From: Candidatus Thorarchaeota archaeon
GTDB lineage: Archaea > Asgardarchaeota > Thorarchaeia > Thorarchaeales > Thorarchaeaceae
DNA length: 64,000 nt
Direction of reading: 5' to 3'
Assembly: GCA_029855935.1 (NCBI GenBank)
Contig: JAGSHN010000031.1
Location: 73,650-137,649 of the forward strand
Under the pieces are notes generated by a model, which worked only from the letters and a program-made list of their open reading frames with translations, did no database searches and was not told the DNA's origin. Both the position numbers and the translations under genes were made by a program. The number at the start of each line of letters is the position of its first letter. Position 1 is the first letter of the stretch. This document shows, piece by piece, positions 17,258 through 35,715 of this stretch.

Positions 17258-19882
17258 TTGCTCATAGTTCAGGACACCAAAACCAATGATGTCATTCGTA
17301 TCATCACAGTTGACGCACTCGTGCAGCTCGGCGAGGTCCGGGCAGGCAAACACGTCAGGAGATTCGACCCTCAGAGGCTCTTGGGATATTTCCGTGCGGT
17401 CAATGATCACCTGCTCAGCTTCGCGAGCAGGTACGGCGATGCCTATCGGTATCTCCCCCTTCGCAACCGCCCGAATCCATCTGCGGCCCCATTGATTGGC
17501 GATTTGTATGAGGGTACAACCGATATTGCTCGTAGCTGGCTGGTGGACCTCTTTCTCGTGGCGCCTCTTGTGAAAGTGGGGGACATTGTACTACCTTCGA
17601 ACCAGCAGACATCCAACGTACGCCTGGCCAGAAACTGGTGCCTGATGTCACAGCACTCGTCACGACTCTACGTCGCTCAAGACCTCCGACAGGGACGGGT
17701 AGATGACCCCGGCTGGGTCACCTTTGTGACAGCCTCTGATCTGTCTGGCGGGCACAGCAGCATCAGTACCCGAGCATTGACCACAGCGATAGAGAGGAAC
17801 AGTCCGCTCATAGTCTCGCTGAGTGGAACAGAAGACGTCGACACACTACTGGAATGGCTCGTTAGGCTGAGAGAGGGTCACGCCGACACGCCACGGCTGA
17901 TGTTTCACATTCGCTCATACGAGGAGTGGGAAGGATCCATCGGGAGACTGCTCGACATTCCAAAGTCAATGCTGCTGACAAGCGGAGCGACCATCACACG
18001 CCTGTCAGAGGTCATCAGATATCTACGTAGGCACGACGGCGGAGACTGGTCCCGCAGACTCGTCTTCGCAAGCGCCTATCCTGAAACTCAATCGGGTGAC
18101 AGCATTCCCGAGATCCTGAGTTTTCTGCTGAGCAAGAGCCTTTCAGCGACTCCACTGGACCTTCACAGAATTCTGGGTGGAAATCTGCTGGGAATGCTAC
18201 CACCACGGCCCACATTCCTCAGACTTGCGGACTCAAAGGCGTCGGTGGTAATGGAAGCCACACTCGGCCGGCTGGGACTACGCGAGATAACGAGATTTCT
18301 CAAGGTACTTCTCCGTGGCGACCGTGTGGGCCTAGTCTCAGTGGACTTCATGGTGACGAAGGAGGGCCGGGTGTCAACCTCAGATGCTGTGCTGACACTT
18401 GCGGACATCTACGAGAGCACAGCAAGGGCCTTCGCCCTGTGCACAGAGAGGGATGGCACCTTGATAGCCACAGGATGGCGTGGTTCGTTTGAGGAGGTTC
18501 TAGAGGAACGGGACGATGACACCTTCAGGACAATAGTACGTTCCACTGCGTCATCAGAGGCAACAGTGTTCGACTCTCCAGCCCATCTCAACCAGCTCGG
18601 AGCGATGCTCGTGCGTTTCCTTGGGCTGTCGGAGGCCAATGCCGTTCTCTCAGCACTTCACTACAGAGTCAGCGTGCGGCACAGCTCACCAGGCATGGTA
18701 TTGATGGCACCCGAGGACCTCAGCGCACTCGGAATAGCCAGCGGCGAGAGAGCAATCATACTTCACAGTGGAACCCGGCAGTGGTGGGGAGGCACTGTCA
18801 GAGAACTCAACACGATTCCCAGGCATGAGGTCGGCATAAGTGACAGAGAAGCGGGCCTCTTCGGCGCGAATGAGGGCACCTCTGTCGATGTCGTTAGATG
18901 TCAGATGACACCACAGACATTGGAGGAGCTCGTCATCGGTTTTGAGAGAAGCGACGGGCACGTATCGATCGAGGATGATGCCTACCTGTACATGCATCAT
19001 CAGGCAATTCGGCAGCGACTGGAGGGGGCAATGGTTGGCATCGGCACGCGCCTCAATGTCTTTCCGACCGACACCACGATTAGGGCCTCAGTCATCGCCA
19101 CTGAGCCGCCGTTGATGCCCGGTCAGCTTGGGAGAGTCACTGAAGAGACCCGTATCCAGACGGTCCCGGTCCCGCTGCTTCGCGAGATGAACGTGGTCCT
19201 ATGTATCATCAGCCATGGACATACCAGTGAGGCCACCCTCCCTGTGGAGGATCCAATGTCAATAAGACGACGCCTCGAGCCGCTTCAGCAGGTGGTCCCC
19301 AGGTTCTCTGAGATAGGCGAGAGGATAGAGCGTACGGTCGACCGCCGCAGCGCGACCGTCATAGCCGGGTTGCTAATCCTCTCAGCCCTGAGTCAGAACC
19401 GTTCGCAGGGACGCTTGGCTCTCATTCGCGGGGGTGAGCGTGTCGAGAGATTCGGAATACAGAAAGGGCAGTTGGTGAAGCATTTTGCAGAATTCGAAGA
19501 TGACCTCTCCACACAGGAGATACTGCACTCAATCGTGGCCTCTATCGTGGAGTTGGCCGGGGGGCAGGACACCTACTCTCCGGACGAGGACTTGTACCAG
19601 GCCATCGCCGAGACCCTCTATGAGATGGGCGATGATATGCCGACAATGGTGATCGTACTGTCCGACACGAGGCCCAATCCTAGCGATGATGCCGAGGTGT
19701 TCCTCCGTGCCATTGCAACGCACAAGAGATACACGATAGACTGGTTGACGCTCGGGGCTGAGGAGCAGCCAACGCCGGGAGAACGGCTGATGAAACTGAT
19801 CAACAGCAGGATATTCGTGCTGGCGCAGCTCTCTGCTCGGGAGATCTTGGCCTATCTCCTGACCGCGGTACAATACCGATGA
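17258..19882 (+). CDS. Multidomain protein: inactive amidohydrolase-like barrel + Cdc48/NSF N-domain + vWA-like domain
   Basis: VDALVQLG / RLVFASAYP / ILGGN; VLMAPEDLSALGIASGE...VIATEP...VTEETRI; VIVLSD. Confidence 0.62.
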   Translation: MLIVQDTKTNDVIRIITVDALVQLGEVRAGKHVRRFDPQRLLGYFRAVNDHLLSFASRYGDAYRYLPLRNRPNPSAAPLIGDLYEGTTDIARSWLVDLFLVAPLVKVGDIVLPSNQQTSNVRLARNWCLMSQHSSRLYVAQDLRQGRVDDPGWVTFVTASDLSGGHSSISTRALTTAIERNSPLIVSLSGTEDVDTLLEWLVRLREGHADTPRLMFHIRSYEEWEGSIGRLLDIPKSMLLTSGATITRLSEVIRYLRRHDGGDWSRRLVFASAYPETQSGDSIPEILSFLLSKSLSATPLDLHRILGGNLLGMLPPRPTFLRLADSKASVVMEATLGRLGLREITRFLKVLLRGDRVGLVSVDFMVTKEGRVSTSDAVLTLADIYESTARAFALCTERDGTLIATGWRGSFEEVLEERDDDTFRTIVRSTASSEATVFDSPAHLNQLGAMLVRFLGLSEANAVLSALHYRVSVRHSSPGMVLMAPEDLSALGIASGERAIILHSGTRQWWGGTVRELNTIPRHEVGISDREAGLFGANEGTSVDVVRCQMTPQTLEELVIGFERSDGHVSIEDDAYLYMHHQAIRQRLEGAMVGIGTRLNVFPTDTTIRASVIATEPPLMPGQLGRVTEETRIQTVPVPLLREMNVVLCIISHGHTSEATLPVEDPMSIRRRLEPLQQVVPRFSEIGERIERTVDRRSATVIAGLLILSALSQNRSQGRLALIRGGERVERFGIQKGQLVKHFAEFEDDLSTQEILHSIVASIVELAGGQDTYSPDEDLYQAIAETLYEMGDDMPTMVIVLSDTRPNPSDDAEVFLRAIATHKRYTIDWLTLGAEEQPTPGERLMKLINSRIFVLAQLSAREILAYLLTAVQYR

Positions 19883-20431: not shown

Positions 20432-20983
20432 CTATATCCTTTGCAGCGATCGCAGGAGCTCTCTTGTCTCCGAAGACTCACGCGGTACTGGGTCAACGAC
20501 TATACCTGGCTCGTATGTTTCGATGATGACCTCTACGCCTGAGTCGCGTACTCGCTTGAAGCCTCTCTTTGACAGGGCACGTACAGTCAGCGTGGTAGTG
20601 TCGAATTGTGTCTTCCCCGTCGCCTGCCCCACGGCTGCATCATGCCTGAGCCGACTTCTCAACATTCTGACCTGTTCTTTCAGCTCGGCAACGCGGACCT
20701 GAAGCTCGTTTCTCTCCTCTGTCACGCGCCGCTCGGCCTCAAGCAGCGCCTCATAGTCCTTCATCGGGACAAACTCCTCGCTTCGATCGATCCAATACAC
20801 TGTTGTGCCGTCTTGTCGGCGCCTGGTACGTACGAGCCCGAGAGCCCTCAATACTGCAATGACATCATAGACTCGCCGCTTGGGGACGCCTATCGTCAGG
20901 GCAATAATGTCACTCCGGATGCCCTCGTCCCCGCACTCCTTTATGAGACTGATGCACTTCTGGGCCAACTCAACGAGCTTCAC
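20432..20983 (-). CDS. E2F/DP-family winged-helix transcription factor-like protein
   Basis: KRRVYDVIAVLRALGLV...W signature, following heptad coiled coil; GTG 20983 preceded by GAGGTG SD. Confidence 0.85.
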   Translation of the reverse strand: MKLVELAQKCISLIKECGDEGIRSDIIALTIGVPKRRVYDVIAVLRALGLVRTRRRQDGTTVYWIDRSEEFVPMKDYEALLEAERRVTEERNELQVRVAELKEQVRMLRSRLRHDAAVGQATGKTQFDTTTLTVRALSKRGFKRVRDSGVEVIIETYEPGIVVDPVPRESSETRELLRSLQRI

Positions 20984-21079
20984 AGTTGCACCTCGGTGGA
21001 GAATCCTGCATGATCTCATATGGAGAGAAGGTGGTCCCCCTACTGCCGAACTCTGTCTTAAGTGTTTGTATTATCCTGT

Positions 21080-21136
21080 CGATTTTTCGCGGTTCCGATT
21101 TTTCGAGAGGCGTATTCGGCCCACTGTGGCGCGAGA
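21080..21136. promoter_or_regulatory. Direct repeat CGATTTTTCG (21080-21089, 21096-21105) and E2F-consensus-like sites TTTTTCGCGG (21083-21092) and TGTGGCGCGAGA (21125-21136)
   Basis: Read directly from the divergent intergenic region upstream of the E2F-like gene. Confidence 0.45.
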
Positions 21137-21214
21137 TAGCAGCACCGACAATTTGATAACATACAGTCAGGGGCCGTCAGTTGCTTGAAACGCAACAGAG
21201 CGGCGGCGATAGTG

Positions 21215-22549
21215 ATGAAAAGAAAGAGAGTAATCATAATGGGTGCTGCTGGCCGAGACTTCCACAACTTCAACGTGTACTTTCGTGACAACGAGGAGTA
21301 CGAAGTTGTGGCCTTCACGGCAGAACAGATCCCCGGAATAGAGGACAGAATCTATCCCCCTGAACTCTCCGGAAGACTGTATCCTGAGGGCATCAAGATA
21401 TACCCTGAGGAGAAACTGCCCGAACTGGTCCAGAAGTATCAGCCAGAGCAGTGCATTCTTGCGTATTCCGACCTGTCGCACATAACGGTCGGACATAAGA
21501 TAGCGTGGGTGAACTCCCTAGGCCCCGACATGCGTCTGATGGGGCCGACGACAACTATGCTGAAGAGCAAGAAACCGGTCATTGCTGTATGTGCCATCCG
21601 GACAGGCTGCGGAAAGAGCCAGACCTCACGCAGAGTCAACAAGATACTCGTAGATATGGGGCTCAAGCCAGTCAATGTCAGGCATCCCATGCCCTACGAC
21701 CCGGATCTGACCACACAGATAGCGCAGAGGTTCGAAACACTGGAGGATATGGACAGGTACCGCTGCACGATTGAAGAGCGGGAGGAGTATGAGCCCATGA
21801 TAAACATGGGTGTCGTGGTCTATGCTGGGGTGGACTATGCAAAGATCCTTGAGCAGGCGGAGCAAGAGGCAGACATCATCACATGGGACGGCGGAAACAA
21901 CGACTTCCCCTTCTACAAGCCCGACCTGCTCATCACGGTCGTCGATCCGCACAGGGCCGGTCACGAGGTGACGTATTATCCGGGTGAGACCAATCTCAGG
22001 ATGGCGGACGTGATCATAATCAATAAGGTCGAAACCGCCGACTATGAGAACATAGAGAAGGTCAGACGGAATATCGAGGCGCTCAACCCCGATGCTGTGG
22101 TCATCGACGCAGCCTCACCAGTCCGTGTCGAGGACATAAGCGTCATCAGAGGCAAGCGTGTGCTCGTCATCGAAGATGGCCCGACAGTGACCCACGGTGA
22201 GATGCGGTACGGCGCGGGCTACATTGCCGCTCGCAAGGCTGGTGCCACGATTGTTGACCCACGGCCGTATGCGGTGGGCAGCATACGCGACACCTTCGAG
22301 AAGTACCGCCATCTTGAGAATGTCCTGCCAGCAATGGGTTACGGTGCCGAGCAGATGAAGGAACTTGAGGAAACAATCAACAAGGCGGATGTCGACGCCG
22401 TTGTAGTAGGTACTCCAATCGACTTGACCCGCATAATCAAGATCAACAAGCCCTCCACGAGAGTGCGCTACGATCTTCAGGAGATTGGAAGACCAGATCT
22501 TGAAGATGTCGTCAAGGAGTTCGTGGAGAAGCACGGGCTCGTCAAGTGA
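21215..22549 (+). CDS. COG2403 P-loop protein (cDPG synthetase superfamily), probable arginine synthetase ArcE type
   Basis: GAAGRDFHNFN, RTGCGKS, RHPMPY, TIEEREEYEP, WDGGNND, EDGPT, PAMGYG. Confidence 0.8.
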   Translation: MKRKRVIIMGAAGRDFHNFNVYFRDNEEYEVVAFTAEQIPGIEDRIYPPELSGRLYPEGIKIYPEEKLPELVQKYQPEQCILAYSDLSHITVGHKIAWVNSLGPDMRLMGPTTTMLKSKKPVIAVCAIRTGCGKSQTSRRVNKILVDMGLKPVNVRHPMPYDPDLTTQIAQRFETLEDMDRYRCTIEEREEYEPMINMGVVVYAGVDYAKILEQAEQEADIITWDGGNNDFPFYKPDLLITVVDPHRAGHEVTYYPGETNLRMADVIIINKVETADYENIEKVRRNIEALNPDAVVIDAASPVRVEDISVIRGKRVLVIEDGPTVTHGEMRYGAGYIAARKAGATIVDPRPYAVGSIRDTFEKYRHLENVLPAMGYGAEQMKELEETINKADVDAVVVGTPIDLTRIIKINKPSTRVRYDLQEIGRPDLEDVVKEFVEKHGLVK

Positions 22550-22760: not shown

Positions 22761-24431
22761 ATGAGCGTGCACTATCCGATACTTGTCAGCGGACAGGAGA
22801 GAGACACCGGCCACTATACGATATTCCCAGACATGGATAGGGTGATTGAGGACCCGGGTCTGGCGATAGCGTTGCAGCTACGCGATGCCTCAGCAGGTCA
22901 GCGACTGTCATTCAGGTGGCTGCCATTCCTCATCCCGCGCTCCGCCCCGGAGTTGCGATATCTGCGCGACTACCGAAGAGCACATGGAGTACCCAAGTAC
23001 GGAAAGAGCGAGCTAGACGAGGTGACCTTCGCCAAGGTCTCACTGGCCCGTGACAGCGACATCGATGACGCACTCGCCACGGGAGTGAGGGATCATCTGA
23101 GTCTCTTCAACCCGTTCCGTGTTGACGGCATGGGTGTGACCCTCGACGAGCGGGTCGATGCACTGTACCGTGCAGGTCTGGCAGTCAAGAGGGAGTTCAG
23201 ACAGATACGGGAGATCTCCGTCAGAGAGGGGGTGCCCATCAAGACCTTCGAGTGGACGTGGAAGATGTTCACCGAGTATCTTGAGAGAGAGACCTTCAGT
23301 CTCTGGGCTGAGGCTCTGGACGTCTTGGAGAGGCCCGGTAGGGACGGGGGGAGAAACTACAGGTTCAGAGAGCCGTACGGTGTGACATGCCTGTTCACGC
23401 CATACAACTCGCCGCTCGCATTGGGTATCCTCAGTATCACCTCCTCCATTCTCGCTGGAAATGCGACGATACTGAAGCCACCGAGCAAGGTGCCACTGAG
23501 CACGATTGTCCTCGGCCGGATAATGCTAAGCTCCTTTCTAGAGCAGGGTCTTCCGCCAGGCATACTTCAGGTCCTGACAGGGGGCGGAAAGCGGATGATG
23601 AGACGTTTCCTCTCCGACCCGCGTACGGGAGCTCTAGTGTGGTATGGTGACAGCTCAACCGGCATCGAGTTATGGGCCGAGGCCATAAGAAGACGAATTC
23701 AGATGGCACCGGAGCTGGCAGGTAGCGATGCGTGCCTCGTCTGGGGAAGGGATGTCGACCTCGAGAGAGTGGTACAGATCATTGTCAGGGGCCGCTTCCT
23801 CGGCGGCGGTCAGGCCTGCATGGCGATAAAGCGCGTTCTTGTCCAGCGAGAGCTGCACGATGACCTGATTGATCTCCTAGTGGAGGAGATCTCACATCTG
23901 AAGATGGGACGACCCTCCGACCCAGAGGTAGATCTACCGCCGCTGGGACTCACAGCGCTGTACCTTCTGCTCGACCAGATGGAGGATGCCAGGGCCAGGG
24001 GCGCAGATGTAGTCACAGGAGGATACCGTTGCAACTTCCTTGGGGAGCCAGATTCTGCCGGACTCTTCTATGCACCCACAATCATCAGAAATGTGACACT
24101 GGAGATGCGCGTGATGCGGGAGGAGGTCTTCGCGCCAGCCCTGCCAGTGATGAGTGTGGACAGCGTGGAGCAGGCTATCGGGATTGCGAATCAGTCCAGA
24201 TACGGCCTGCGCGCATCTGTGTTCACGGACGATGAGAGAGTCAGGGCCAGATGGATCAAGGAAGTACAAGCGGGAGGGATAATAGTCGAACAGGACCATC
24301 TCTACTTCGATCCTCACATGCCGCATCTGGGCGGCTACAAAGACTCCGGAATAATCGGTGCAAAGTACTTTCCAGTGATGCTCACTCGAATGAAATACGT
24401 ACATACGGGACCGGGCGTGTCACCACTATGA
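22761..24431 (+). CDS. Aldehyde dehydrogenase family protein (divergent)
   Basis: REPYGV, PYNSP, GNATILKP, PELAGSD, GQACMA (catalytic Cys), EEVFAP, YGL, GGYKDSG. Confidence 0.9.
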   Translation: MSVHYPILVSGQERDTGHYTIFPDMDRVIEDPGLAIALQLRDASAGQRLSFRWLPFLIPRSAPELRYLRDYRRAHGVPKYGKSELDEVTFAKVSLARDSDIDDALATGVRDHLSLFNPFRVDGMGVTLDERVDALYRAGLAVKREFRQIREISVREGVPIKTFEWTWKMFTEYLERETFSLWAEALDVLERPGRDGGRNYRFREPYGVTCLFTPYNSPLALGILSITSSILAGNATILKPPSKVPLSTIVLGRIMLSSFLEQGLPPGILQVLTGGGKRMMRRFLSDPRTGALVWYGDSSTGIELWAEAIRRRIQMAPELAGSDACLVWGRDVDLERVVQIIVRGRFLGGGQACMAIKRVLVQRELHDDLIDLLVEEISHLKMGRPSDPEVDLPPLGLTALYLLLDQMEDARARGADVVTGGYRCNFLGEPDSAGLFYAPTIIRNVTLEMRVMREEVFAPALPVMSVDSVEQAIGIANQSRYGLRASVFTDDERVRARWIKEVQAGGIIVEQDHLYFDPHMPHLGGYKDSGIIGAKYFPVMLTRMKYVHTGPGVSPL

Positions 24432-25786
24432 CAGAGCCGAGAGGCCGTGATCGGGAGCCGGGTGGACGTCAGACCACACGAGAGGCGAGAGAGGTTGCAG
24501 TTAGACTGCTGACCGTCTTCACCCAGGGGGTCAAGTCCATGCATGCGGTACTCCGGGACTACCTCTTCACAACCAGACCGCCCGCCAATCTGTTCAATCT
24601 CGTCCAGGCGCTGACTATGAGCACCGTCCGGTATCTCAATACCATCGACTTCATCATAATCCGAAGCGGACTCCCTGTGCGGGTGAAGGATCTGCCAGCC
24701 GAACAGAGAAATGCGCTGAGGCTTGCTGTCTTCGAGGGGCGGTGGCTCGGAGAGCCTATTGAAGAACTGAAGGCCGACTATCTCCGGGGCATTGACGAGC
24801 TTGCGGACGCCGTTGAACGTGCGACCGAGGCCGACTTGGGTCGTCTTGTGTCACGTCTCCCCGAGGACGAACGACTTGGAGTGATGTACTCTCACCCAAC
24901 ATTCATTGTGAGGACGCTGCTTGATAATCTCCCCGAGAAGCAGGTGCTGGCCCTACTCAAGGCCAATCTCTCACCGCGACCGTACTACGTCAGACCGAAC
25001 AGGCTCAAGAACGAGGACGCCAACATTGTAGAGAGTCTCTCAGCGGAGGGCGTGAGAGTCACTCCTGACGGAGATGTAGAGGAACTCTTCCGTGTGATTA
25101 GTGCGCCTGACAAAGTCGTACGATCGCATCTCTTTGCGGAGGGCAGAGTCCTCATTCAGGATAAGGCGAGCCTGCTCACGGTCCGGGCACTGGATGTCAG
25201 GCCGGGGGAAACTGTCTGGGACGCCTGTGCAGCACCAGGCATGAAGACGCAGGCGCTATGGGAGATGATGGATGCAAGGGGGAGGCTGGTCGCTTCTGAC
25301 GTTCACATGGCCCGGCTGAGGACAGCCGTTGATAGAGCGTCCATGCTTGGTCTCGACAGGGTGGCTTGGCTCCACACCGATGCGTCGACGGCACCAGTCA
25401 GGAACGCGGACAAGATACTCATAGACGCGCCCTGCACGTCCACCGGTATCCTTCGAAGTAGACCCTCGTTCAAGTGGAAGCTTAACAAGAAGACACTACT
25501 GAACATAATGTCAGTTCAGAACAAGATACTCTACGGAATTGTCAGGGCATACTTGGATTGCCCCGGGACAGAGATTGTCTACGCCACGTGCTCGATACTG
25601 CCCCACGAGGGAGAGTCACAGATTGACTCGGTCATCTCAAGATTTGATGTCGAGCTCGTGGACGTACCGATAGAGTGTGCCGACCACGGCTATGAGGGCT
25701 ACGCCTGCTCTGAGAAGGTCAGACGTCTCTTCCCACACAGACACGACACGTCAGGTTTCTTCATCGCAAAGATTCGTATCCCCTGA
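24428..25786 (+). CDS. RsmB/NOP2-family RNA m5C methyltransferase with NusB-like N-terminus
   Basis: IQDKAS, DACAAPGMKT, DAPCTSTG, YATCS, GFFIAK; ATGA overlap with ALDH stop. Confidence 0.92.
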   Translation: MTEPRGRDREPGGRQTTREAREVAVRLLTVFTQGVKSMHAVLRDYLFTTRPPANLFNLVQALTMSTVRYLNTIDFIIIRSGLPVRVKDLPAEQRNALRLAVFEGRWLGEPIEELKADYLRGIDELADAVERATEADLGRLVSRLPEDERLGVMYSHPTFIVRTLLDNLPEKQVLALLKANLSPRPYYVRPNRLKNEDANIVESLSAEGVRVTPDGDVEELFRVISAPDKVVRSHLFAEGRVLIQDKASLLTVRALDVRPGETVWDACAAPGMKTQALWEMMDARGRLVASDVHMARLRTAVDRASMLGLDRVAWLHTDASTAPVRNADKILIDAPCTSTGILRSRPSFKWKLNKKTLLNIMSVQNKILYGIVRAYLDCPGTEIVYATCSILPHEGESQIDSVISRFDVELVDVPIECADHGYEGYACSEKVRRLFPHRHDTSGFFIAKIRIP

Positions 25787-32359: not shown

Positions 32360-33055
32360 GTGGACACGGCCAAAGACGCTCGCATTCTCCTTGTCGAAGA
32401 TGCGCTCAATCGAATGCTCGCAGTTGTCAAGCAGCGGCGTCTGAAGACCTACCTAGACTATGCTGCTCTGGCAGCCGCACTCAATGACGCACATGGCGCC
32501 CTCTACGAGGTCAAGTATTCCTATGCCGATGCGGAGCAGGTCTTGAATCTACCAGCCACAACACGTGTCGTGGCCGCGGCAGAGGCCGTCGCCAAAGCAG
32601 TAGGCGATGCTATGAACTCGGGCTACAAGCCGGGCAGTACTGGTGAGAAACTGGCCTTGGCAGAGCTGAACTATGGAACAAGAATCATCACGGGCTTTCC
32701 AAGACGTCTGAGAAACGGTAGTGACGATCCTGGGATGGCCACCGACATAATTGCTGTCGAGACCACACAGGTGTCCGAGGTGAAGGGGTCCGAGAATCTG
32801 CTCGAGTGCAGATGCACAGACGGCTCCCGGATATGGACCGTTGTGACAAACATCAGAGAGGTGAGACCCAATATGACCCTTGCTGCAGCTGTATTGCCGC
32901 CTGCAGAGTTTATGGGAGTCATTAGTGAGGCGATGTTCCTGAGCAAGAATGTCCTCCCGGAGGGGACAGCCCTGGGAGTCATCGAGCAACCCACGCCGGA
33001 CATTCTGAAACAGGCTCGCGCACAGGTCCTTGCCATAGTAAAGAGGCTGATGTAG
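32360..33055 (+). CDS. tRNA-binding domain (Trbp111/Myf-like OB fold) protein with helical N-terminus
   Basis: VVTNI, LPPAEFMGVISEAMF. Confidence 0.8.
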   Translation: MDTAKDARILLVEDALNRMLAVVKQRRLKTYLDYAALAAALNDAHGALYEVKYSYADAEQVLNLPATTRVVAAAEAVAKAVGDAMNSGYKPGSTGEKLALAELNYGTRIITGFPRRLRNGSDDPGMATDIIAVETTQVSEVKGSENLLECRCTDGSRIWTVVTNIREVRPNMTLAAAVLPPAEFMGVISEAMFLSKNVLPEGTALGVIEQPTPDILKQARAQVLAIVKRLM

Positions 33056-33403
33056 ATGGTGGGACTGCGAGAGATACAGCAGAGACTCAGACAGTTCGAG
33101 GAGGCACGTGGATGGAACAGATTCCCCGCATCTCAGGTCTTCACTCATCTCATTGAGGAGCTGGGGGAGATATCACGGTATATAACGGTGGAGGAGGGCT
33201 ACAAGGCCATCGGGCTGGGCCATGAGGCGCCAGACAGATCGGGACTCGCAAGAGAATTCGCCCAGGTCTTTTCCCTCTTCGTTCAGCTCGCCAACCACTT
33301 TGGGATTGATCTTGAGGCCAGTGTCCTGCGTGAGATTGAGCTGATGGAGAAGAGGTTCCCGGCGCGAGAATGGCGTGAATACATGAGCGGAGAGGAAGGG
33401 TGA
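33056..33403 (+). CDS. MazG-like nucleotide pyrophosphohydrolase
   Basis: FEEARGW, LIEELGEI, LANHFGIDLE, KRFP. Confidence 0.85.
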   Translation: MVGLREIQQRLRQFEEARGWNRFPASQVFTHLIEELGEISRYITVEEGYKAIGLGHEAPDRSGLAREFAQVFSLFVQLANHFGIDLEASVLREIELMEKRFPAREWREYMSGEEG

Positions 33404-33440
33404 CTCGATAGCGCAGGCCACCTGAGGCCGTCTCAGCTAC

Positions 33441-33878
33441 TCATTTCATCTTCCGATGGGCGTCGAGTTCCTTCTTGGCCAGGTCCTCAAGGTCCTTTGT
33501 CGCGGCCAACAGGCCAAGTGCCCTGTTGCTCACTGCCTTGATGTTCTTTTCCTTTGCCCACTGCGCCAGACCAGTCACGAGCGGGCCGAGCGCAGTGCGA
33601 GCAGCCTCAACAGTGCCGACTGCCTTTCCAAGAAGCTCAAGGGCATTCTTGGGCTTGAGACGTGCCTCCGCCACACGCAACCAGACAAGAGCATGAATCA
33701 TGTAGAGTGCATCAAGCATCAGTGTTGGTGACTTCGGGTTCTCCTGAACTTTGGCGATCAGACGATTCTTACGGGTCTCGAAGACATCCTTGAACAGGTT
33801 GTAGGCCTTCTTGTAACTACCCTTGTCGAGCTCTATGATACCCTTCTGAAGCTTCTCATCGGTCTCGGACAATCGCAC
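33441..33878 (-). CDS. Hypothetical helical (TPR-like) protein
   Basis: GIIELDKGSYKKAYNLF TPR-like start; true start may be TTG 33872. Confidence 0.65.
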   Translation of the reverse strand: MRLSETDEKLQKGIIELDKGSYKKAYNLFKDVFETRKNRLIAKVQENPKSPTLMLDALYMIHALVWLRVAEARLKPKNALELLGKAVGTVEAARTALGPLVTGLAQWAKEKNIKAVSNRALGLLAATKDLEDLAKKELDAHRKMK

Positions 33879-34032
33879 GCCTCCGCCAGCCGTTTAGGTA
33901 TATGCGCAGTTCAAGATACCCACGACACTATTATGACTTTCTGCGCCGAAAGCCACCGAGAACCCGGGGCGACACAGGGACCATCAGCCAGTCTCGCGAG
34001 AGACCCAGCATATCGCTCTTGAACTCGGGAGT

Positions 34033-34040
34033 ATTTAAAT
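34033..34040 (+). promoter_or_regulatory. TATA-box-like element
   Basis: ATTTAAAT upstream of the ANL-family gene. Confidence 0.5.
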
Positions 34041-34122
34041 CACGGTACTTGAAAGTGAACAGCCACTTGGAGTGAACACGCCCAAGGCGTGTGCCACCAC
34101 ACTACCACACGGAGGATAGCGG

Positions 34123-35715
34123 ATGACCAAGACCACTCTCACGTTTCAGGAACTCAAGCGGATATCGGACCGCGAGATAAGGGAGATGCAAGATCGGAAG
34201 TTCAGGGCGTTCATCAGGTATCAAGTGTGGCCCAACCACCCCTACTACAGACATCTGTTCAAGGAGAACAACATAGACCCGTTCAATATCACCTGCATGC
34301 GAGACTGGGAGAAGTATCAGATCCCCCTTGTCCGTAAGGTCGACTACAAGGACCACATCCGGGAGTTCGTGCTCAATCCGATGGAGGAGGACGGAAAGGA
34401 ACGCGACCCTGCCAACATCGTGAAGAGTGTGATGGCCTATGCGAAGGCCTCCGGCAAGAGTGACCTGTACGCATTCCTTCGGAACAACGGTATCCGTGTG
34501 AAGCTACATATCGGCGCAGATGCGGCAATGGAACGAATCAAGGAGAGACTTGCCTATCTGTACAGCCCACTCCAGTTCTGGCTCAGTTCAGGCCGTGCCT
34601 CCGGTATGCCGGCCCCCGTATTTCTCACTCGGTACGACAATGACCTTCTGTATCGCAACTGCGTGAAGGTGGGACAGATGGCCGTCGATCCGTGGGTGGG
34701 GACCGGATGGAAGCTTGTCAGTATGAACTTGTTTCCGTACGCACCGCATCTTGGTTGGCACGCTGTCAACATGGGCCTGAAACAGATGTCCGAGTTCTAC
34801 GTGGCGACAAGCGCTGGCGGTGCAATTCCGACGCCCAAGCTCGTCGAGATTGCCAAGCTATTCAAGGTGAACGGCTTTGCAGGGATGCCCAGCTATCTCA
34901 GGAACCGCTTCTTCAGAGCGATGAAAGAGATGGACTATGAGGCCCCAGAGAAGGTGGTCGTCCTGCTGGCGGGCGAGAAGATCTATCCGCCGGTCGTGGA
35001 CGACATCGTGGACACGCTGACCAGCAAGGGTGCCAAGGAGGTCCGTGTCGTCGGCGGCTATGCGTCGTCGGAGAGTAAGATCTCGTTCGCTGTGCAGTGC
35101 TCCTACGAAGGTCCATACCACAATGTCAGTCCTCTGATTCTCTCATTCGAGTTCGTCCGGGTCAATGACGATGGTTCGTGGGAGTTTGTGGACGACGACG
35201 AGCCGGGTCACGTGACGCTCTTCCATCTCGACGGCACTGGCACGGTCTTTGAGGGATTCCTGCTTGGTGACATCTCAAGTCGCCACGAGCGGGGTTGCTG
35301 CCCGATCTGCGGAATGGAGGGACCCTTCTTCTGGGACATCGGCCGACAGAACGACGTTGAGGCCCAGATCGACATAATGGGCATCAGCGAGAAGAAGATC
35401 AAGGGGGCAACAGTCAATCTCACAGCGCTGAGGACCGACCTGTTGAGCATAGACGGCATAGAGGAGCTCCAGATAGAGATTGCAAAGGAGGACCCCAACG
35501 ACCCCTACAGCATGGATGTCCTCAACATCTATGTCGCGTTGTACGGTGGGGCCGAAGGACGGAGAGACGAGATAGTCAGAGAGGTGCAGCAGGTGACTAA
35601 GAATGCTGCCGAGATCACTCCGCGCGTATTTGTCATATCCTTCGAGGAGCTGATCGAGCGAAGCGGTGGAATGAAGTTCATGGAGATCAGCGACGTCAGA
35701 CCCCGCCCCGCATAG
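34123..35715 (+). CDS. Phenylacetate-CoA ligase/F390 synthetase-like adenylate-forming (ANL) enzyme
   Basis: HPYYR, IPLVRK, SSG-x2-SG-x-P, LAGE, GYASSE, LGD, KIKGATV. Confidence 0.75.
   Translation: MTKTTLTFQELKRISDREIREMQDRKFRAFIRYQVWPNHPYYRHLFKENNIDPFNITCMRDWEKYQIPLVRKVDYKDHIREFVLNPMEEDGKERDPANIVKSVMAYAKASGKSDLYAFLRNNGIRVKLHIGADAAMERIKERLAYLYSPLQFWLSSGRASGMPAPVFLTRYDNDLLYRNCVKVGQMAVDPWVGTGWKLVSMNLFPYAPHLGWHAVNMGLKQMSEFYVATSAGGAIPTPKLVEIAKLFKVNGFAGMPSYLRNRFFRAMKEMDYEAPEKVVVLLAGEKIYPPVVDDIVDTLTSKGAKEVRVVGGYASSESKISFAVQCSYEGPYHNVSPLILSFEFVRVNDDGSWEFVDDDEPGHVTLFHLDGTGTVFEGFLLGDISSRHERGCCPICGMEGPFFWDIGRQNDVEAQIDIMGISEKKIKGATVNLTALRTDLLSIDGIEELQIEIAKEDPNDPYSMDVLNIYVALYGGAEGRRDEIVREVQQVTKNAAEITPRVFVISFEELIERSGGMKFMEISDVRPRPA

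Follow-up and report, generated by a model that had tools for sequence, protein, structure and literature searches.

Did the module through which eukaryotic E2F and DP proteins pair exist before eukaryotes themselves? Eukaryotic cells enter S phase by way of the E2F-DP switch, and where this pair came from belongs to the wider problem of the origin of the eukaryotic cell cycle. The question is raised by a gene at positions 20432..20983 (reverse strand) of a 64,000-nucleotide (nt) window of DNA from a Candidatus Thorarchaeota archaeon (contig JAGSHN010000031.1), which a preliminary description read as an archaeal E2F-like factor with winged helix, coiled coil and marked-box-like domain. The protein and its family are already known, and the sole new point is suggested by the tail, in which a coil predicted to pair with itself is followed by a beta module possibly matching the E2F pairing domain.

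The gene encodes 183 amino acids (aa) plus a stop codon; this and all features of its upstream region are given on the reverse strand. The open frame (20432..21019) translates exactly to the sequence quoted in the preliminary description, whose observation at this position is confirmed in its translation, its start at 20983 and its motif PKRRVYDVIAVLRALGLV...VYW. The GTG start lies 5 nt behind a ribosome-binding site, GAGGTG (20989..20994), and at 30 orthologous loci a conserved GGGGTGC stands ahead of the corresponding GTG, TTG or ATG. Most relatives are likewise 183 aa long, and the published entry for the protein, discussed below, also begins here; as read from the orthologous loci, GTG 20983 is the real start. 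The gene is carried by 55 of the 57 genomes of its own (Thor) family, nearly always in single copy, and because it is also conserved over its full length, chance is excluded: judged by this conservation, the gene is real from end to end. Its closest relatives are labelled Thorarchaeota, and across a phylum sample its distribution is patchy (103 of 301 genomes, a few with two copies).

Asgard E2F/DP proteins were treated by Eme et al. 2023 (Nature 618:992; Supplementary Information 4.1.5; arCOG02749), who described a family with the same conserved DNA-binding domain and base-contact residues. The exact 183-aa sequence appears in their eukaryotic signature protein table (supplementary file 5) as 'E2F/DP PF02319 Thorarchaeia_A361..ILBNFCAC_02611'; to this listing the present analysis adds a predicted homodimerising coil and a beta module weakly resembling the marked box. 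A Helarchaeota relative has already been named 'E2F family transcription factor' by NCBI, and Asgard E2F homologues are also mentioned in a review. Our literature search found no paper describing a coiled coil or marked box in an archaeal E2F. The likeness of the tail to the E2F pairing module is a reasonable but unproven hypothesis that runs counter to the literature, and the one statement that it could challenge is that of Eme et al. that the archaeal proteins have no dimerisation domain.

The DNA-binding half is the firmest part of the protein. Residues 1-65 (20789..20983) form an E2F-type winged helix, with an RRVYD recognition helix and a wing Trp64, at a predicted local distance difference test (pLDDT) score of 85-92. 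The protein scores 36.4 bits against Pfam E2F_TDP (PF02319; cut-off 25.7), which was also matched by all 45 relatives scanned, and hhalign aligns the winged helix with eukaryotic E2Fs at a probability of 99% (E 2e-18 to 2e-20). E2F4 is the best match of the single sequence in the Protein Data Bank (PDB). With the family profile, only E2F8 (3.5e-7) and E2F4 (2.9e-3) were significant among natural PDB proteins, while two engineered proteins scored 7e-4 and DP2 was found at E 0.62. A profile search of 1.84 billion representative proteins found just 78, Asgard relatives first and eukaryotic proteins of E2F and E2F7/8 type after them, and no DP was seen among those of the 78 that were checked. The RRxYD base-contact motif and the conserved wing Trp are retained, and residues P34, K35, R36, R37, Y39, D40, A43, L45 and W64 are invariant in the 45 relatives. 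From these matches, residues 1-65 constitute a genuine winged helix of the E2F family with its base-contacting RRxYD intact. The preliminary description had remarked on an Ala in place of the Asn of 'NVL', and this change is both real and fixed throughout the archaeal family. It had also called RRVYD DP-like, which we do not uphold: V and I alternate at this position inside the archaeal family, and RRVYD also occurs in some eukaryotic E2Fs. The protein shares with DP1 and DP2 the winged-helix family and this spelling, but it contains no Pfam DP domain and, with DP2 at E 0.62 against 3.5e-7 for E2F8, the archaeal family profile is nearer to E2F than to DP.

Past the winged helix, the AlphaFold2 (AF2) model has a single 49-residue helix over residues 74-122 (20618..20764; pLDDT about 79-96). 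When residues 66-183 were modelled as two copies, the chains were predicted to pair with an ipSAE (interaction prediction score from aligned errors) of 0.58, compared to 0.02 for the best of 3 controls; this mark is attained by 20 of 30 proteins whose solved structure is a pair of one chain and by 1 of 23 with a single-chain structure. At least 39% of contacts are shared between runs, and the pLDDT of the partner does not drop below 52. The contacts predicted with confidence run in register (80:80, 94:94, 101:101) across residues 69-115, as in a parallel zipper, and the E2F-like protein is thus predicted to form a parallel, in-register coiled-coil homodimer. The coil begins at the same distance past the winged helix as in E2F (~10 residues after), and hhalign to E2F runs without a large gap through its first 40 residues. 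The coiled coil that the preliminary description had placed after the winged helix is present where E2F has one, with the added prediction that it homodimerises. A profile of the tail searched against PDB sequences turned up only coiled coils, with no E2F or DP, and was set aside.

The coil is followed by a conserved four-strand beta module (residues 124-166; 20486..20614), our candidate counterpart of the marked box, and by a C-terminal helix (residues 171-182; 20438..20473) that is seen in Thorarchaeia-type proteins and is not conserved in the other aligned groups. No other part of the tail is as widely kept as the module, which is found in Thor, Hel/Loki, Baldr, Sif and Heimdall-type proteins. 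It is also present in short relatives of 113-137 aa that have no coil at all, two of which bear a lineage name (Heimdallarchaeota and Kariarchaeaceae). Using an alignment of 108 tails, AF2 modelled residues 90-183 at a mean pLDDT of 82 (77-94 for the module) as the helix end, four strands and the last helix, and this tail model matches the ESM Atlas model for the cluster of the family itself to 2.2 Å over 62 residues. When the tail model was compared to 350,542 PDB chains with Foldseek, the coiled coil-marked box (CC-MB) chain of E2F1 (2aze_B) ranked first, that of E2F5 (5tuv_B) seventh and that of E2F4 (5tuu_B) eighth. These matches span about 90 of 94 columns each but are weak (E 0.5-3, template modelling score about 0.3), and no DP chain was among the top 50. 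VIA-align, an independent aligner run on 48,161 chains, also placed 2aze_B first, with tail-model residues 1-81 on E2F1 212-301.

Some routes to an identity for the tail were tried and set aside. In a language-model look-up, residues 128-195 within the whole protein retrieved E2F_CC-MB clusters first (0.77, 0.75), but the same 68 residues alone gave no usable match, and the whole-protein result was read as winged-helix context leaking and was not counted as independent evidence. The first whole-protein AF2 model had a tail pLDDT below 50, and its Foldseek search listed generic winged helices only. Pfam matches in the tail to HicA_toxin (E 0.005; outside the 25 most-matched families) and to an Ssb-like oligonucleotide-binding fold (4 of 108 members) were treated as chance.

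The interpretation given in the preliminary description is upheld in part, and its marked-box claim is left in the balance. Its by-eye alignment is the one that hhalign returns in global mode, and 2aze_B holds its weak first rank. The claim finds no footing at the level of profiles, and a number of results weigh against kinship between the archaeal tail and the eukaryotic module. hhalign of the module to the marked box gives a probability below 1% (P 0.06-0.28, not significant). The archaeal module profile reaches at most 2.5 bits on 127 eukaryotic marked-box segments, compared to 3.2-3.3 bits on reversed or shuffled copies. Pfam E2F_CC-MB (PF16421) does not match the window's protein or its tail at E<=10, is absent from the 25 most-matched Pfam families of 45 proteins and 108 tails at the same threshold, and was not found at the gene in a genome scan. 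The homodimer prediction does not place the beta part with confidence. For the coil, a eukaryotic E2F profile covering winged helix and coil scores real proteins 9.3 bits above versions cut after the winged helix; only about 4 of these bits are specific, as about 5 of the 9 are gained by reversed coils too. The likeness of the coil to that of E2F thus appears mostly generic, and the case for homology of the coil itself is weak. Moreover, the coil is lacking from relatives in the Heimdall group, the lineage usually placed nearest to eukaryotes. The shared domain order, next to what is a genuine E2F winged helix, and a first rank from each of two aligners favour homology of the beta module to the E2F marked box; the lack of any significant score counts against it, and we regard the matter as evenly poised.

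The explanation that best accounts for the data as a whole is one that we consider probable, if only just. In it the protein is the Thorarchaeia member of the published Asgard E2F/DP family, a 183-aa single-copy transcription factor. Residues 74-122 would join two copies in a parallel, in-register coiled coil, giving a homodimer and not an E2F-DP heterodimer. The four-strand module after the coil may, at about an even chance, be the archaeal counterpart of the marked box and add to the dimer interface, and a CG-containing box upstream, described below, would be the candidate operator. If the module is indeed the marked-box counterpart, the layout of winged helix, coiled coil and marked box predates eukaryotes. 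The further proposal that the whole E2F core (winged helix, dimerising coil and marked-box-type module) already existed in Asgard archaea as one homodimeric protein, of which eukaryotic E2F and DP are duplicated, specialised copies, we place slightly on the doubtful side of even.

Comparison with eukaryotic E2F1-6 (1CF7, 2AZE, 5TUU, 5TUV) shows how far the resemblance extends. Both have, in this order, an RRxYD winged helix, a coil ~10 residues on and a beta-rich module, and structurally the archaeal tail comes closest to the E2F1 CC-MB, albeit by a weak match. Unlike E2F1-6, the archaeal protein has no significant E2F_CC-MB match, is predicted to homodimerise instead of pairing with DP, and carries Ala for the Asn of 'NVL'. 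Its chain stops at residue 183 and includes neither a transactivation nor a pocket-binding tail, and its module lacks the roughly 12-residue 'EDI..LP' insert of E2F.

A different history would have an E2F-type DNA-binding domain to which this lineage added a tail of its own, a leucine zipper and small beta domain acquired independently of the eukaryotic CC-MB. The two would then resemble each other merely because both are dimerisation devices built as a helix followed by a small sheet. This account is favoured by the lack of profile-level similarity between module and marked box, and it is also consistent with the mostly generic likeness of the coil, with the occurrence of the coil in some Asgard groups and not in others, and with the published view (Eme et al. 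2023). It does not easily explain the shared domain order or the equal spacing between winged helix and coil, nor why the E2F1 CC-MB chain came first for two independent aligners, among 350,542 and 48,161 chains. Within the family, furthermore, the module is older than the coil, and so is no late add-on. We consider independent acquisition a serious possibility, though somewhat improbable.

What the factor might control was approached through the divergent intergenic region upstream of it. A promoter-like element, AATACAAA-N3-TTAAGA (21056..21072), lies 88 nt before the start codon; in most relatives it reads ATACAAA-N4-TAAATA, and it stands 85-88 nt from the start in 19 of 22 anchorable loci. 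Beyond it are two copies of a box, CGAAAAATCG, 16 bp apart (21080..21105), which form a candidate operator by the conservation of TTCGRAAAATCG and by their rarity in the genome. The TTCGRAAAATCG box, in one or two copies, is kept upstream in most genera of the Thor family (upstream regions of loci L003-L032), where the intergenic order is box, ATACAAA-N4-TAAATA at 85-88 nt and ribosome-binding site. The exact form CGRAAAATCG occurs at 8 sites in the 2.97-Mb genome, 2 of them in this intergenic region. We propose that the dimer would bind a short, roughly symmetric CG-containing site, for which the best candidate is the TTCGRAAAATCG box upstream of its own promoter. Such binding would permit control of its own gene, the divergent neighbour, or both. 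It is plausible that the box pair is the operator of the E2F-like factor, but the pair might just as well act for the divergent gene or for a different protein.

The conserved box is TTCGRAAAATCG and not the E2F consensus TTTSSCGC. The E2F-like TTTTTCGCGG of the window is a local spelling of the TTCGRAAAATCG box that is not kept in other genera, whereas the surrounding CGAAAAATCG repeat is. TTTSSCGC is not enriched in the window (5 sites versus 4.7 expected) or genome-wide (227 sites versus a composition-based estimate of about 430), and the two TTTSGCGCSAAA palindromes in the genome lie within open reading frames (ORFs). Elsewhere, two further exact TCGAAAAATCG boxes lie 600 nt apart on contig C29 of genome G000 (about 32815-34265), in a stretch of roughly 1.4 kb whose only open frame of at least 100 aa is one of 117 aa at its edge. 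The extension of one of these boxes, TCGAAAAATCGTCAAC, recurs at a site on contig C11 (position 6049). At locus L036 (the lineage of P0125), an AT-rich promoter has a textbook E2F site, TTTGGCGC, 50 nt ahead of the E2F-like start, as a single case.

The neighbouring genes are themselves conserved. The divergent neighbour (21185-22549, forward strand; 454 aa) has a CobW/HypB/UreG-type nucleotide-binding match and is read as cyclic-2,3-diphosphoglycerate-synthetase-like. It is retained only within the Thor family, where its identity is 78-88% compared to 50-63% for the E2F-like gene; in other classes the upstream neighbour differs. On the other side, a cyclophilin-like gene (PF04126; 19952-20329, forward strand) converges tail-to-tail on the E2F-like gene, as it does at 29 of 30 Thor-family loci (the thirtieth sequence stops at the E2F-like gene), with a gap of 14-102 nt. 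The same arrangement is found in Helarchaeota, Baldrarchaeia and one further Asgard lineage (L033:4537-4929, L035:4531-4977, L036:4579-4959), and the PF04126 gene was not found at the one Heimdall locus examined, that of a short form (L034).

Such an arrangement allows that the factor is a local regulator of its divergent and convergent neighbours, unrelated to the control of cell cycle or replication. Such a role would fit the conservation, in every genus of the family, of both the divergent neighbour and the intergenic box shared with it. It would also fit the tail-to-tail cyclophilin-like gene in four Asgard lineages, the rarity of the exact box elsewhere in the genome, the lack of enrichment of canonical E2F sites and the position of the two palindromic sites inside ORFs. 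Against it, other classes have a different upstream neighbour but still keep the factor, which is also a near-universal single-copy gene in its family. We give a purely local role somewhat less than an even chance.

That the protein is a generic archaeal winged-helix regulator of TrmB or MarR type merely mimicking the E2F motif is very improbable: it has a weak Pfam TrmB match (PF01978; 21.7 bits), and Foldseek on the whole-protein model cannot separate winged helices and places E2F4 at rank 21, but the TrmB score falls short of its cut-off (25.6), that of E2F_TDP exceeds its own, the 1.84-billion-protein search brought in eukaryotic E2Fs, the PDB profile search drew in no TrmB or MarR protein, and E2F4 has the highest identity (31%) among the structural matches. 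With the TrmB family of archaeal regulators it shares a winged helix followed by a dimerising helix. It falls below their cut-offs, including that of the NCBIfam TrmB equivalog (12 bits versus 600), and lacks the TrmB C-terminal sugar-binding domain. As far as sequence can tell, a TrmB/MarR-like identity is rejected, and the preliminary assignment of the N terminus to E2F, with E2F_TDP above its cut-off and hhalign at 99%, stands.

The preliminary description had suggested that the genome be searched for a second paralogue or a pocket or cyclin-fold partner. The host genome (2.97 Mb, 97%-complete) contains one E2F_TDP copy and no second, no Pfam DP domain was found in it, and no Rb pocket was found either, the best RB_A match reaching 11 bits against a cut-off of 25. 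Nothing ties the E2F-like protein to Rb-type or cyclin-type control. Some other Asgard genomes do carry two copies of the tail module (G148, G181, G235, G250 (family f14), G058 and G048 of the phylum sample), and one Sifarchaeia genome in the table of Eme et al. has a short and a long E2F-like paralogue. Such pairs could be natural heterodimer pairs.

Two further observations concern the surrounding window. An 874-aa ORF (17258-19882, forward strand) has no Pfam match at E<=0.001. For an RsmB-like gene, the longest ORF (24251..25786) overlaps the end of an aldehyde dehydrogenase gene (22761..24431) by 180 nt (24251-24431), and the true RsmB start is probably further downstream.

In short, the meaning of this locus turns on its tail. 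If the E2F-DP pairing module descends from the tail of the Asgard factor, eukaryotes would have received a dimeric factor ready-made, and the only later additions would be the duplication into E2F and DP and the control by Rb.
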